The translations under genes were made by a program, and so were the position numbers. From positions 12,117-76,116 of the forward strand of contig JAMPFU010000012.1 of NCBI GenBank assembly GCA_023664385.1: a stretch of DNA of 64,000 bases. Direction: 5' to 3'. The DNA is from Clostridium sp. (GTDB taxonomy: Bacteria > Bacillota > Clostridia > Lachnospirales > Lachnospiraceae). Shown here piece after piece: positions 43,813 through 48,271 of the stretch (position 1 is the stretch's first letter; every line of letters begins with the position of its first letter). A model generated the notes under the pieces. That model was not told the origin of the DNA. It saw nothing but the letters and a program-made list of their open reading frames with translations, and searched no databases.

Positions 43813-44673
43813 TCACCCTCCAAACACATAAAGATATACATCTTCCAAATCAGGTTTGACGTTTAATGCATCCCCATTGGGAGCGTGTTCGGATAGAAAG
43901 CGTATTTTAGTATTGTCCCCATATCGAACAGCACTGGAAACTAAATATTGATTCATATACTCTCCAGCTTTCGCAGTATCAACCGTCAATTCCCATACCT
44001 TTCCCTCAAGCTGCTGCTGCATAGTTTCAGGCGAACCAATTTCAACAATTTCGCCCTTTTTCAATAAGATTACTTTATTTGCAATATATTCTATATCCTG
44101 TACAACATGGGTTGCTATCAGTATAATTTTATCCTCCGCATTTTCTGCAATCAGATTTCTTGCATGGATACGTTCCTTCGGGTCAAGTCCGGCTGTAGGT
44201 TCATCAAATACTACAATTTTAGGGTTTCCTAAAAATGCCTGTGCAATCAGAAGCCGCTGTTTCATCCCCCCTGAATATCCGCCTATTTTCTTGTCAAGAA
44301 CATCCAATAAATTGACCTTACCTGCAATTATTTCAATAGCCTCCTGCAGCTCATTTTTGTTCATACCCTTAAGCAATCCCATATAATTCAAGAATCTACG
44401 TCCCGTAAAAAACGGAAATAATCCCTGCTGTTGGGGCATATAACCAAGTATTCCCTTATATGTGTCTCCCATTTTGGAAATATCCATCCCATCCATGCAA
44501 ATACGTCCTGCTGTTGGACGTATATTTTGCACCAACAGCTTCATAAGCGTAGATTTACCTGCACCATTTGGTCCTAAAAGCCCGTATATTCCCGCTGTAA
44601 GCTGACAGTTGACCCCATTGAGTGCTACAAGACTTTTATATTTTTTTGATAATGCTTCAAACTCTAACTGCAT
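43813..44673 (-). CDS. ABC transporter ATP-binding protein
   Basis: Walker A 'GPNGAGKSTL', signature 'YSGGMKQRL', Walker B 'VVFDEPTAGLD'. Confidence 0.85.
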   Translation of the reverse strand: MQLEFEALSKKYKSLVALNGVNCQLTAGIYGLLGPNGAGKSTLMKLLVQNIRPTAGRICMDGMDISKMGDTYKGILGYMPQQQGLFPFFTGRRFLNYMGLLKGMNKNELQEAIEIIAGKVNLLDVLDKKIGGYSGGMKQRLLIAQAFLGNPKIVVFDEPTAGLDPKERIHARNLIAENAEDKIILIATHVVQDIEYIANKVILLKKGEIVEIGSPETMQQQLEGKVWELTVDTAKAGEYMNQYLVSSAVRYGDNTKIRFLSEHAPNGDALNVKPDLEDVYLYVFGG

Positions 44674-44710: not shown

Positions 44711-46015
44711 CTACTTAATATCAATCCATGTCAGACTCTTTAACTGTTCCTCTGTTAAATCCTCGTAAGGGATATAATTTTCTTCAAGGAATACGCTCCA
44801 GTTTCTTACCGCATAATTGCTTATGTCGCCCGGCAACAAATCCCCAGCCTTATAGCCCGTATAGTCCGTTGCATCTATGTAAATAATATTTTTATCACGA
44901 TCTACCTTCTTTGTATCCGATATATAGGTTCCCTCCTGCGTAAACGATGTCTTTGCTATGTACCATCGGTCTTCCTCACAATCATACAGTGCCTTGAGAT
45001 ACTCCGAAGCTACTACATGCATATATCCCCCAAGCCAGTCAACTCTTGCATCCTCAGCAGTAAACAGCTCCTTTGTATCAGCAAAACGGTCATCACACTC
45101 CCACATCGTAATCACATCTGTTGGAAAATCCGTAGTCTGCACATATTTCTTATTTTTGTCTGCAAAAAATTTCGGATAAGCAGTTTCAAAGGTTCTAAGC
45201 TCAACTGTATCTCCTGTCTGTATATTTATTTCCTCTATTTTATCCACTACTATTGCCGTCATTTTGCTCTTTGCTATTTCATGTATATCTTCAAGATCTT
45301 CCGCTGATTCAACAGTAAAAGTTACTGTACCATCACTAGCATTTGTATACCCATAATCAATATATAACGTGCCCCTATCACTGATTCCGATGATATCTAC
45401 ACCTTCCGAAGATATTCCATCCATATGAGGATAATTCTTTATGCATTTTAATTTATTCCAGCGGACATTGTATGCATATATGGCATTATCCAAATTATAT
45501 GTGTTTAATTGAATTTCTCCATTATGCGTGTGTGCCGCAAAATATATTGTATCCCCCACGGCTATCATATTATGAACTCCGCCGGAATCTGCCATATAAA
45601 TTTCCTTCCTACCCCCTCCATTGTTTCCTAACCTTATTAATTTACTATAACCTTCATAAAATGCTTCCCCAGCTTCATTAATAGAAATATCACTATCACC
45701 ATATGATATATATATGTAATCCCCATAAACCAACAGTTCGATTCCCAACCCCGGAATATAAGCATTACATGTATTATCATTGTGTTCACAGTTTGCCCGA
45801 TTACAGACTACCGCCTTTTCCCCTGTAGCATTATCCATAAAATATAAACGTTCGTCTTTAACATAATACATTCCATCCTCACTAAATGTCTGTCCGTGTC
45901 CACTATACACAATTTCATCAGGAAATTTTTGATTCAACTTGACTGCTATGAATATCCCGACAGCCAAAGCAGCAATAACAAGCAGACAGACACAACATTT
46001 TATGATTTGTTTCAT
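44711..46015 (-). CDS. Secreted/membrane-anchored hypothetical protein, possibly a DUF5050-like beta-propeller
   Basis: N-terminal TM/signal, then recurrent 'YIYISYGDS', 'TIYFAAH' and 'NIIYIDATD' blades. Confidence 0.4.
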   Translation of the reverse strand: MKQIIKCCVCLLVIAALAVGIFIAVKLNQKFPDEIVYSGHGQTFSEDGMYYVKDERLYFMDNATGEKAVVCNRANCEHNDNTCNAYIPGLGIELLVYGDYIYISYGDSDISINEAGEAFYEGYSKLIRLGNNGGGRKEIYMADSGGVHNMIAVGDTIYFAAHTHNGEIQLNTYNLDNAIYAYNVRWNKLKCIKNYPHMDGISSEGVDIIGISDRGTLYIDYGYTNASDGTVTFTVESAEDLEDIHEIAKSKMTAIVVDKIEEINIQTGDTVELRTFETAYPKFFADKNKKYVQTTDFPTDVITMWECDDRFADTKELFTAEDARVDWLGGYMHVVASEYLKALYDCEEDRWYIAKTSFTQEGTYISDTKKVDRDKNIIYIDATDYTGYKAGDLLPGDISNYAVRNWSVFLEENYIPYEDLTEEQLKSLTWIDIK

Positions 46016-46109
46016 ACCTTTTCTCCTTTATCTTGAACATTACCGCATCCTGATTTTACCTCGCAATATGCTCCAATTTACAAAGTAAATCGAGAACTAC
46101 ACCTATTGA

Positions 46110-46170
46110 AAACAAAAAGCAGAAATGGGCTGCCGCAATATAAATATCCTTAATACGGCAGCCATTTCCA
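46110..46170 (-). terminator. Terminator hairpin after the small secreted protein gene
   Basis: aaatgggctgccg / cggcagccattt is followed by a T-rich run on the minus-strand RNA. Confidence 0.4.
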
Positions 46171-46180
46171 CCTTATAAAT

Positions 46181-46564
46181 TTAATAATTTACCGTACATG
46201 ACCCGTATACTTTACTTGGATTTTTTGCATATTTCATTATCGCAATAGCCTCATACTTTCCTAGTGAAGGTGTGGAACTGGTTTTAAAATCGTAATTTTT
46301 CTCGGATACGGTTACTGTTATCAATCCGCAATCTCTGTCTGCTGTAAACCTATTTTCAACATAGGAATCGTGAATTGACAAACGCATTTTCCCAAGCAAC
46401 TTATCATTTCCATTTTCCCGGACATATAATGTATATGCTGTTATGGACTCGCGCATCCCCGTTCCAACAGTCTCAGCATCTGCTTTAATACATACCATGC
46501 TTACCACCATAAACATTGCCATCATAGCTGCCATTATTTTTTTCTTAAACGTGTTTTTTTTCAT
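46181..46564 (-). CDS. Small secreted hypothetical protein
   Basis: Signal peptide 'MKKNTFKKKIMAAMMAMFMVVSMVCIKADA'. The ATG at 46564 follows AAGGGGAGA; the ORF track extends to 46654. Confidence 0.4.
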   Translation of the reverse strand: MKKNTFKKKIMAAMMAMFMVVSMVCIKADAETVGTGMRESITAYTLYVRENGNDKLLGKMRLSIHDSYVENRFTADRDCGLITVTVSEKNYDFKTSSTPSLGKYEAIAIMKYAKNPSKVYGSCTVNY

Positions 46565-47007
46565 TAAAATCTCCCCTTTGCATTTTTTATTTTTATTAAT
46601 GTATATCGATGGAATGCTTAGTTTGAACAAACTATCCTCGATGTATCTGCGCATCCTTACAGTGTCAAAGACAGTTCGTCCCTTAATATCCTCCCCTCTA
46701 TATTAATTTTCCACCGTATCGCTACATTTTGTAAGATAATATATTAGAATTAATAGGGAATTTACTTTCCCTATTATGCTTATGAATTGAATATAACACT
46801 TTAAAACTATATTGTCAATAAATGTCATAAGGTGCCGTATACCATATTCATATTTGATACAACAGAACTGAAAATCTATTAAACGCAATTGTCATAAATG
46901 AAAACATATGGTAGAATACGAACGAGGAACAATCGTGTTACAAGGTGGTAACCTCCCAAAACTTCATGCCCGATTTGCCGGAGTACATAAGAGGGGAGGT
47001 GGCGCAA

Positions 47008-47124
47008 ATGACAGCTTTTGAAATCATTTCGATTTTCATAGGCATATTGGCTTTGCTAATTGCCTTTGGTGGTTTTGTTATAGCGTTGCTTGCCTTTCTC
47101 GATAAGAGGAACAAGCGAAAATAA
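47008..47124 (+). CDS. Candidate type I toxin: 38-aa hydrophobic holin-like peptide (Hol_Tox-like)
   Basis: Not in the ORF track because it is under 60 aa. The translation is MTAFEIISIFIGILALLIAFGGFVIALLAFLDKRNKRK*, and the strong SD GGGGAGGTGG lies 6 nt upstream. It is a single TM helix with a basic tail. The 5' UTR contains a CCUCC stretch able to pair with the SD. Confidence 0.5.
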   Translation: MTAFEIISIFIGILALLIAFGGFVIALLAFLDKRNKRK

Positions 47125-47128
47125 AATA

Positions 47129-47215
47129 AGCCTACCTTGTTACTTAGCCGGTACAGGTAGGCTCATTTAACCAACCGGGAGGCTAACCACTTTGTGGGCG
47201 GTTGCTTCCTCTTTT
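47129..47215. terminator. Two stem-loops downstream of the toxin ORF. The first has a perfect 11-bp stem, agcctacctgt/acaggtaggct. They could act as terminators on both strands
   Basis: Seen in the sequence. On the minus strand, hairpin 1 is followed by TATTTTATTTT. Confidence 0.4.
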
Positions 47216-47223
47216 ATGTACAC

Positions 47224-47252
47224 ATAATATCATATTAGGAATTTTGTTTCAA
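47224..47252 (-). promoter_or_regulatory. Antisense promoter TTGAAA-N17-TATTAT reading into the toxin 3' end (candidate antitoxin sRNA promoter)
   Basis: The reverse complement of 47224-47252 gives TTGAAAcaaaattcctaatatgaTATTAT. The predicted ~95-nt antisense RNA would end at the hairpin-1 terminator, overlapping the last toxin codons. Confidence 0.3.
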
Positions 47253-47349
47253 GGGTAAGTTATCTATTTTTCCGAATGGACAGACTCAATCCTTTTTGAA
47301 AGCGCCATCATCTATAATTAAATCTAATACAACCTTTTATTTATACTGA

Positions 47350-47390
47350 CATAGGAAAACCTCCGAAACACAAGGTTTCAGAGGTTCTGA
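47350..47390 (-). terminator. Terminator after rpsI
   Basis: aacctccgaaac / gtttcagaggtt (with a G-U wobble) is followed by TTTTCC on the minus-strand RNA. Confidence 0.4.
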
Positions 47391-47423
47391 GTCTCTCTTA
47401 TATTTGATAAGAATATCTCCAAA

Positions 47424-47825
47424 TTATCTCTTGGAGAACTGTGGTGCACGTCTTGCTGCCTTGAGACCATATTTCTTTCTTTCCTTCATACGTGGATCCC
47501 TTGTTAAGAAGCCTGCCTTCTTGAGTGCTGGTCTGTAATCAGCGTCTGCCTGAAGAAGAGCTCTTGAAATACCATGTCTGATTGCTCCTGCCTGACCTGT
47601 AAATCCACCACCATGAACATTAACAAGCACGTCAAACTTTCCTGTCGTACCTGTTGTTACAAATGGCTGCTGAACGATTACCTTAAGCGTATTTAATCCG
47701 AAGTAATCATCCATGTCCTTTTTATTTATCGTTATTTTTCCGGTACCTGGTACGAGATATACTCGTGCGATACTGCTTTTTCTTCTACCTGTTCCGTAAA
47801 ATCTTGTACTCTTAGCCACGAACAT
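47424..47825 (-). CDS. rpsI: 30S ribosomal protein S9
   Basis: Sequence identity pattern ('[19 protein letters not shown]'). Confidence 0.95.
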
Positions 47826-47836
47826 TTCCTCCCTTA

Positions 47837-48271
47837 CTAATACTTAATCTCTAAAGTCTCAGGCTTCTGTGCCTGCTGCTTATGCTCAGGTCCTGCATAT
47901 ACATGAAGCTTCTTAATCATTTGTCTGCCAAGTGGTCCCTTTGGAAGCATTCCCTTAACTGCAAGGTAAATAACATCCTCCGGCTTCTTAGCGAGCTTTT
48001 CCTTAAGCGTCTGCTCCTTCATTCCGCCAACATAATCAGAATGATGATAATAAATCTTCTGCTCAAGCTTCTTGCCTGTAACCTTAATCTTATCAGCGTT
48101 GACTACTACTACATAATCACCTGTATCCATATGAGGTGTAAATGTCGGCTTGTTCTTTCCTCTTAAAATACTTGCTATTTCAGATGATAAACGACCTAAT
48201 GTATGTCCCGTGGCATCAACTACATACCACTTTCTTTCAATGTTTGATGGGCTTGCCATAAAACTTTTCAT
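47837..48271 (-). CDS. rplM: 50S ribosomal protein L13
   Basis: '[29 protein letters not shown]'. Confidence 0.95.

Follow-up and report, generated by a model that had tools for sequence, protein, structure and literature searches.

In this work we describe a 370-bp module in a 64,000-nucleotide (nt) stretch of Clostridium sp. DNA (family Lachnospiraceae; assembly GCA_023664385.1, contig JAMPFU010000012.1), the whole of which is called the window here. The module, in region 46880-47260, combines a short open reading frame (ORF) with a facing antisense RNA gene, and with a probability of about 0.8 we read it as a chromosomal type I toxin-antitoxin (TA) module of the TxpA/BsrG (Hol_Tox) family with an antitoxin of the SR4/RatA style. 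Judged from its sequence, it is a well-preserved but ordinary type I TA cassette of the bsrG/SR4 layout, with two facing sigma-A-type promoters, located by consensus scan, about 335 bp apart. Its elements are as follows, in window coordinates:

46889..46917, plus strand: toxin promoter, TTGTCA-17-TAGAAT with a TG-extended -10 (10 of 12 consensus matches plus the TG)
46924..47216, plus strand: predicted toxin messenger RNA (mRNA) of about 293 nt, with an 84-nt leader, a 38-codon ORF and a 92-nt 3' untranslated region (UTR), bounded by the promoter and the terminator U-tract
46924..46957, plus strand: 5' arm of helix P1, including the anti-Shine-Dalgarno (anti-SD) sequence; pairs with 47177-47211
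46952-46957, plus strand: anti-SD CCUCCC in the leader, read from the sequence
46969..46981, plus strand: small leader hairpin, consensus CCGG-UUUG-CCGG (RNAalifold pairs 69-72/77-80; GC-to-AU double changes in 3 sequences)
46993-47002, plus strand: Shine-Dalgarno (SD) sequence GGGGAGGTGG (GGGGAGGUGG), core GGAGG at 46995-46999, 8 nt before the ATG; read from the sequence and near-invariant (n = 74)
47008..47124, plus strand: toxin ORF of 38 amino acids (aa), MTAFEIISIFIGILALLIAFGGFVIALLAFLDKRNKRK, supported by PF16935, coding selection and hydropathy
47086-47118, plus strand: ORF-end hairpin in the last 12 codons, -12.2 kcal/mol
47129-47163, both strands: hairpin 1, -17.2 kcal/mol
47177..47211, plus strand: 3' arm of helix P1; pairs with 46924-46957
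47113..47217, minus strand: predicted antitoxin RNA of about 100 nt, folding into a 5' stem-loop, a linker and a terminator
47252..47224, minus strand: antitoxin RNA promoter, TTGAAA-17-TATTAT with a TG-extended -10 (10 of 12 matches plus the TG)

A first-pass annotation of the same DNA had proposed the ORF, its SD, two downstream hairpins and the minus-strand promoter; the plus-strand promoter, the helix closing the 5' end of the mRNA onto its 3' region, and the identity of the second hairpin with the 3' arm of that helix were absent from it. For comparison with relatives, a species-representative scan (one genome per species) was used, which gave at least 487 encoding sites. The best 80 of these were fetched (L001-L080), and locus-level comparisons employed 70-75 of the fetched loci: 70 in the promoter identity profile, 75 in the antisense promoter search and 73 in the helix and ensemble energies, while the alignment, A2, holds 74 sequences.

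The assignment of the 38-codon ORF to the Hol_Tox family, together with the profile hidden Markov model (HMM) search that the first-pass annotation had called for, was borne out, as the peptide scores 33.4 bits (E 4.1e-8) on Pfam PF16935 against a gathering threshold of 23.3. Hol_Tox takes in the TxpA/BsrG type I toxins, and both BsrG (34.5 bits) and TxpA (31.3 bits) pass the same model; the BsrG query shares 100% identity with an ORF in phage SPBc2 (SPbeta), so the control is sound. At E-values up to 1 Pfam returned only Hol_Tox and a sub-threshold MaAIMP_sms match, and the Fst family was not matched. The predicted single transmembrane helix with a basic tail is also recovered: the peptide, shorter than 60 aa, has one hydrophobic helix at about residues 6-31, with 19-residue hydropathy windows up to 2.9, followed by KRNKRK at the C-terminus.

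Pairwise codon differences among 51 distinct ORF sequences amount to 8929 synonymous and 4599 non-synonymous changes, Gly12 being written with all four of its codons and Leu17 with five, and by this comparison the ORF evolves as a protein-coding gene. Its last 12 or so codons (47084-47121) are near-invariant in nucleotides across all sequence groups, whereas earlier third positions vary freely, which points to an additional constraint at the RNA level; the ORF-end hairpin located there has 97.9% of its alignment cells paired, and four of its 13 pairs never vary. The N-terminal extensions that gene callers give to relatives (52-70 aa) show no conservation, and ATG 47008 is therefore taken as the real start. 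A 59-aa reading from GTG 46945 was considered and rejected, the extensions differing or being absent in relatives and the ATG having a strong conserved SD, the one noted earlier.

Conservation of the ORF, which the first-pass annotation had made a test of its proposal, is borne out by the encoding sites, at least 487 in number, and the ORF shows selection at the protein level. A protein search, for which the query was the 38-aa peptide plus two leader-encoded residues, gave 196 clusters at E 1e-2 or below, most of them carrying PF16935 and several labelled 'putative holin-like toxin', from Lachnospiraceae, Dorea, Hungatella, Enterocloster and others. The fetched relatives, the best 80 of at least 487, are nearly all labelled Lachnospiraceae, the family in which we also take Clostridium bolteae to belong, and several genomes have two or three copies. 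One 39-aa homologue (P0089) is found beside serine recombinases, Mob_Pre relaxases, an integrase, a DDE transposase, phage capsid genes and RelB/YoeB, and the contigs of 13 relatives are predicted to be viral. The tblastn search of curated phage (50,697 genomes) and plasmid collections returned no match, with a low-complexity filter that may hide hydrophobic peptides, though the BsrG control worked.

Of the other explanations, the one that survives best takes the product for a small membrane protein that is not a toxin, either a regulator like ComI, a TxpA-like inhibitor of competence, or a modulator of a membrane complex, the level of which is tuned by the antisense RNA. We consider this unlikely. 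Its support comes from an NCBIfam hit to ComI that is weak (18.3 bits, cut-off 55), from the position of the window copy next to the core genes rpsI-rplM, shared by at least six genomes, from the action of BsrG, which does not permeabilise the membrane, and from the work of Fozo et al., in which some family members had no detectable toxicity and non-toxic roles were argued. The ComI match, however, is far below threshold, the toxin mRNA is predicted to be heavily locked, and the module has the features of addiction-type elements, being multi-copy, sometimes in tandem, placed in variable islands and beside recombinases, relaxases, integrases and phage genes, a context that fits a type I TA system.

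The facing promoters are the next line of evidence. In this AT-rich stretch 10 promoter-like matches were found against 7.6 +/- 2.6 in shuffled sequences; the scan alone is thus near chance, and the case therefore rests on comparison with relatives. The minus-strand promoter proposed earlier is present and was kept in 75 of 75 loci, always as TTGAAT, TTGAAA, TTGCAA or TTGAAC followed after exactly 17 nt by TAxxxT, with the TG in 71; the end of its -10 box lies 92-132 nt beyond the stop codon. In the identity profile the conserved block runs from the toxin -35 (46889) to the antisense -35 (47252). Upstream of 46888 the sequence has no conservation in other species, the identity of 0.3-0.5 being AT-rich background; identity then climbs over the -35 and -10 boxes of the toxin promoter, holds at 0.7-0.99 from the leader through the 3' UTR, dips to 0.22 in the spacer of the minus-strand promoter between peaks of 0.67 (-10) and 0.71 (-35), and returns to background after 47257. 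Boxes and spacing are thus kept while the spacer drifts, and the pattern is therefore as expected from selection on a working promoter. Both boxes of the toxin promoter, from which transcription is predicted to start at about 46924, are likewise conserved in alignment A2, where the conserved block begins with them.

The predicted antitoxin RNA is fully complementary to the 3' UTR of the toxin mRNA and to its last three or so codons. It is predicted to fold at -34.8 kcal/mol (z = -2.7), with a 5' stem-loop complementary to the P1 3' arm and a terminator complementary to hairpin 1, and this two-hairpin plan recurs in every sequence group. The first-pass annotation had expected an antisense RNA of about 90-100 nt ending at hairpin 1, in agreement with the length predicted here and with the conservation of hairpin 1 and its minus-strand U-run across relatives. 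It had also described the two downstream hairpins as shared bidirectional terminators. Both hairpins are there, but neither is shared in this way: hairpin 1 has a U-tail on the minus strand only (UUAUUUUAUUUU), overlapping the stop codon and last codons, and hairpin 2 has its U-tract on the plus strand only (UCUUUUAU). Hairpin 1 itself is about equally stable on either strand across the loci (-20.5 and -20.7 kcal/mol), with changes on both sides in 5 of its 10 pairs. It is the terminator of the antitoxin RNA, and on the plus strand a 3'-UTR stem-loop placed like SL3 of bsrG. With a terminator over the stop codon and the facing promoter in every locus searched, the txpA/RatA-type arrangement claimed earlier stands at the level of sequence.

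It could still be supposed that the toxin gene is real while the facing promoter of the window copy is silent or no regulator, with control left to mRNA folding or to an RNA acting in trans from another copy. The near-chance promoter scan would allow this; the window holds one copy only, no second one being found in its 64 kb for the DNA, the 38-aa peptide or the 31-aa paralogue described below, but genomes of the group often carry several. We hold it very unlikely, given the -35, spacing and -10 retained at all 75 loci around a variable spacer and a minus-strand terminator with its U-tail at the right distance.

The toxin mRNA is predicted to close on itself through helix P1, of 25-29 bp including G-U pairs and -38.5 kcal/mol on average, formed by the first nucleotides of the mRNA with a segment near its 3' end. 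P1 was tested without an alignment, by duplex energies within and between sequence groups and by comparison of strands, and then column by column with a named structure. In the three sequence groups cognate arms pair at -39 to -41 kcal/mol and arms combined across groups at -23 to -31, so that cognate pairs exceed non-cognate ones by 8-16 kcal/mol. In 73 of 73 loci the duplex formed by the plus strand is more stable than its mirror on the minus strand (mean -38.5 vs -27.7 kcal/mol), and P1 is therefore a plus-strand RNA structure and not a DNA inverted repeat. In the column-wise count, which covered P1, hairpin 1 and the leader and ORF-end hairpins, 86% of cells are paired, against at most 53% when the partners are slid, the unpaired cells belonging mostly to groups out of register; for the same four-element structure both partners have changed in 19 pairs, a number that none of 500 shuffles reached (10.6 +/- 2.0). 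The full-length plus-strand RNA has a minimum free energy of -108.5 kcal/mol (z = -5.9 vs shuffles). On these comparative data, co-variation and G-U pairs that work on the plus strand only support helix P1.

The 3' arm has further properties. Within it lies an SD-like GGGAGG, the pairing partner of the leader CCUCCC, and folded locally it is hairpin 2, the terminator of the toxin mRNA, followed by the U-tract. It also contains the most conserved non-coding motif of the module, CCACUUUG, invariant in the 74 sequences (A2 columns C305-T311), which sits in the loop of the local 3' hairpin and has a UUUG of the YUNR type. Loops of this type are the kind that nucleates kissing between RNAs in antisense systems, and by this analogy the CCACUUUG loop may be the nucleation site of the antitoxin.

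Some relatives depart from this plan. In those of group 3 (L058, L059, L060, L065 and L069) the P1 3' arm is followed by an additional hairpin that serves as a separate terminator, as in bsrG, and in those of group 2 hairpin 1 is followed by an additional small hairpin (GUGUCCGUAAGGACAU). The small leader hairpin is weakened by a G-to-A change in the window copy and is absent from L084, the sister-strain module that encodes the 31-aa paralogue.

The two arms, 34 bp each, might alternatively be inverted repeats at the ends of a small mobile DNA element, non-autonomous and with a short ORF by chance, and the shortness of the block (370 bp), its multiple copies and its many genomic contexts, often at contig ends, would suit such an element. 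This is highly improbable: the arms lie inside the two promoters and not at the ends of the block, the G-U pairs favour the plus strand by about 11 kcal/mol, the arms co-vary for pairing and not for sequence, the ORF is under protein-level selection, and no target-site duplication was seen at the breakpoints between the window and L084. A phage holin or antiholin of a lysis cassette, which the Pfam family name 'holin-like', weak PHROG matches to families of unknown function and the 13 relatives on predicted viral contigs might suggest, has a negligible probability, since the neighbours are rpsI and two proteins without a Pfam match, with no endolysin or phage gene adjacent, none of the 50,697 phage genomes was hit by tblastn, and it is type I TA systems, not lysis cassettes, that are marked by a convergent antisense RNA gene of their own.

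Returning to the toxin-antitoxin reading, we propose the following mechanism. Two RNAs would be made, the mRNA of about 293 nt from the plus strand and the antisense RNA of about 100 nt from the minus strand, the latter overlapping the whole 3' UTR of the former and its last codons. In the mRNA alone, the first 34 or so nucleotides would pair with about 35 near the 3' end to form P1, burying the 5' end and parking the anti-SD CCUCCC of the leader on the GGGAGG of the 3' arm, while the real SD would be partly masked by the conserved hairpin region at the end of the ORF. Pairing of the antisense RNA with the 3' region would create a duplex of about 100 bp, by analogy a substrate for RNase III, and in the folding model would open P1, leaving CCUCCC free to clamp the real SD and so to block translation. 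Should the supply of antitoxin fail, the structured mRNA would be translated into the 38-aa membrane peptide, which would presumably stop growth or lyse the cell. We infer a dual action, SD sequestration plus degradation, as in bsrG/SR4 and txpA/RatA. The role of such a module may be to stabilise islands or mobile elements, or to serve in phage defence.

The ability of the leader CCUCC to sequester the SD had been pointed out in the first-pass annotation, and CCUCC:GGAGG is indeed the RNAalifold consensus. In thermodynamic ensembles of the free mRNA the SD, which is predicted to be mostly paired, is unpaired with a mean probability of 0.12 over the 73 loci, its pairing being divided between the leader (0.42) and the end of the ORF (0.40). 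When the 3' region is blocked, as binding of the antisense RNA would do, pairing with the leader CCUCC(C) rises to 0.89 and the unpaired fraction falls to 0.03, these SD/anti-SD pairs being invariant and hence without co-variation. The computed switch thus suggests three sites, namely the anti-SD, the SD and the SD mimic of the 3' arm.

Several results weigh against this interpretation. Both RNAs are predicted from sequence alone, and the computed change in SD accessibility is modest, the SD being mostly paired in both states. RNAalifold applied to the full mRNA alignment did not return P1, the arms of the three groups being out of register in the MAFFT alignment; besides the pairing of the leader CCUCC with the SD it gave instead ACAAGGUGG (46940-46949) with the 5' strand of hairpin 1 (47130-47140), one pair of which co-varies (AU 47, GC 18, GU 6). 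This pairing may be, in a folding model, a metastable co-transcriptional fold rivalling P1, and the free-state mRNA is therefore to be seen as an ensemble. Three of the 73 loci (L038, L073 and L075) are without the P1 5' arm, with a duplex of only about -16 kcal/mol. The peptide and BsrG were not aligned by pairwise BLASTP, so that the family link holds at the profile-HMM level only. An Rfam scan of 46000-48000 found nothing at gathering score, the best overlapping model being rli43 with 18.8 bits against 100, and the RNA shell of the module belongs to no described RNA family. TxpA, finally, was not toxic in E. coli, and YhzE-2 was without toxicity (Fozo et al.).

As a separate observation, L038, L073 and L075 retain the ORF together with the 3' arm and the antitoxin promoter, the 5' arm having been lost or replaced; they may be decayed or differently regulated copies.

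Among described systems the closest is bsrG/SR4 of the B. subtilis prophage SPbeta. The two share a 38-aa toxin with a single transmembrane helix and a basic C-terminus that falls under the same Pfam model, an mRNA of about 295 nt in bsrG whose first 35 or so nt pair with a segment near the 3' end (P1), an SD within a paired region, a stop codon just before or in a 3' stem-loop, and a convergent cis-antisense RNA that overlaps the 3' end. In bsrG nt 1-35 pair with nt 232-262; binding of SR4 makes nt 1-33 single-stranded and lengthens the SD helix from 4 to 8 bp, and SR4 also promotes degradation of the mRNA (Jahn & Brantl 2013, PMC3834814). Opening of P1 by the antitoxin and tightened sequestration of the SD are thus shown for bsrG and computed here. 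Unlike in that system, the peptides are not alignable pairwise; SR4 has 183 nt and four stem-loops, whereas the antitoxin here has about 100 nt and two; the P1 3' arm doubles as the terminator in most loci here, the two being separate in the group 3 relatives and in bsrG; here the SD is clamped by a leader CCUCCC, which is itself parked on an SD-like GGGAGG in the 3' arm; and the host is a member of Lachnospiraceae, not Bacillus, with the window copy outside any prophage.

The txpA/RatA pair of the B. subtilis skin element belongs to the same toxin family, and in it, as in EF3263 (txpA)/RatA of Enterococcus faecalis, where an antisense RNA of about 110 nt was detected, a convergent antisense RNA pairs with the toxin mRNA at its 3' end. 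RNase III degrades the toxin/antitoxin duplex of the B. subtilis pair. TxpA is longer, however, with 59 aa, RatA has about 220 nt, and the RNAs have no sequence similarity to those described here, as reflected in the absence of an Rfam match. In T1TAdb a 3'-overlapping antisense RNA, an SD/anti-SD pair and a terminator define the TxpA/RatA and BsrE-G-H families. The hok/Sok and aapA1/IsoA1 systems resemble the module in an mRNA closed by 5'-3' pairing and an SD held by an anti-SD; in contrast, their antisense RNAs target the 5' or initiation region and 3' processing activates the mRNA, whereas here the antisense RNA would target the 3' arm itself, and the toxin families are unrelated.

TxpA-like sequences in Clostridiales were reported by Fozo et al. 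(2010), who noted that members of the TxpA family had earlier been annotated as 'holin-like toxins', and a later review names Clostridium bolteae among the TxpA-like hosts. The C. bolteae TxpA-like sequences (Fozo et al. 2010) come from the same host clade and toxin family and were likewise found in silico; there the toxin ORFs were only listed, and an antitoxin promoter, RNA architecture or co-variation is not reported in the papers searched. Searches of the literature on PF16935/Hol_Tox and on type I TA in Lachnospiraceae yielded no study of this subfamily.

Experiments on type I TA systems have mostly used E. coli, Bacillus, Staphylococcus, Enterococcus, Helicobacter and C. difficile. With the module, gut Lachnospiraceae gain a clean, testable example with both genes, both predicted transcript ends and the key helices defined, belonging to a type that is very common and often present several times per genome. 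P1, mapped biochemically for bsrG, here receives comparative support in a second lineage; the understanding of how such systems work is unchanged by it. The module could also serve as a counter-selection or plasmid-stabilisation part in bacteria that are hard to engineer.

The window copy lies between a 157-aa ORF without a Pfam match and the rpsI-rplM-truA cluster, rpsI being convergent with the module; rpsI-rplM is found just downstream in five other species-level loci as well. A sister strain (GCA_023664775.1), 98.7% identical across rpsI-truA, has at the same site (L084) a module with the same promoters, P1 arms, 3' UTR and antisense spacer as the window, which encodes a 31-aa paralogue, MSTYEVLTLLILFGTFLVALLAYIDRNNKRK, scoring 52 bits on Hol_Tox. 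This paralogue in a near-identical shell led us to the idea of a portable cassette, in which the RNA shell (two promoters, P1 arms with the anti-SD and the SD mimic, and hairpin 1) is kept and toxin ORFs are swapped. A separate thought is that read-through from rplM-rpsI, to which the module repeatedly lies convergent and just downstream, could add antisense RNA; if true, release of the toxin would be tied to a fall in ribosome synthesis. Both ideas are speculative and we regard them as quite unlikely.

In the sister strain the modules are in tandem (L084 12030-12606, its minus strand), with the contig ending inside the second copy; the paralogue in its almost identical shell suggests swapping of the ORF core between paralogues by recombination. 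Homology with the window breaks off at 47356 and is regained at 47264, and between these points the sister carries DpnI and DpnD (DpnD-PcfM) genes (L084 10402-12060). From the module to the rpsI terminator (47264-47356) the sequence is thus strain-variable, and the module flags a variable island next to rpsI. In many relatives the contig ends no more than a few hundred bases away; the module, probably a repeat at which short-read assemblies break, would explain some contig breaks in those of Lachnospiraceae.

The neighbours on the other side of the module are as follows:

46181-46654, minus strand: 157-aa ORF, no Pfam match
44711-46015, minus strand: 434-aa ORF, no Pfam match
43813-44673: ABC-transporter ATPase gene, beyond the 434-aa ORF

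Upstream of the 157-aa ORF (46654..46181) there is a near-consensus minus-strand promoter, TTGACA-17-TATATT with a TG, at 46818..46790, followed at 46751-46775 by the palindrome TAATAGGGAA-TTTAC-TTTCCCTATTA. From their positions, the two may form a leader or attenuator of the 157-aa ORF gene.

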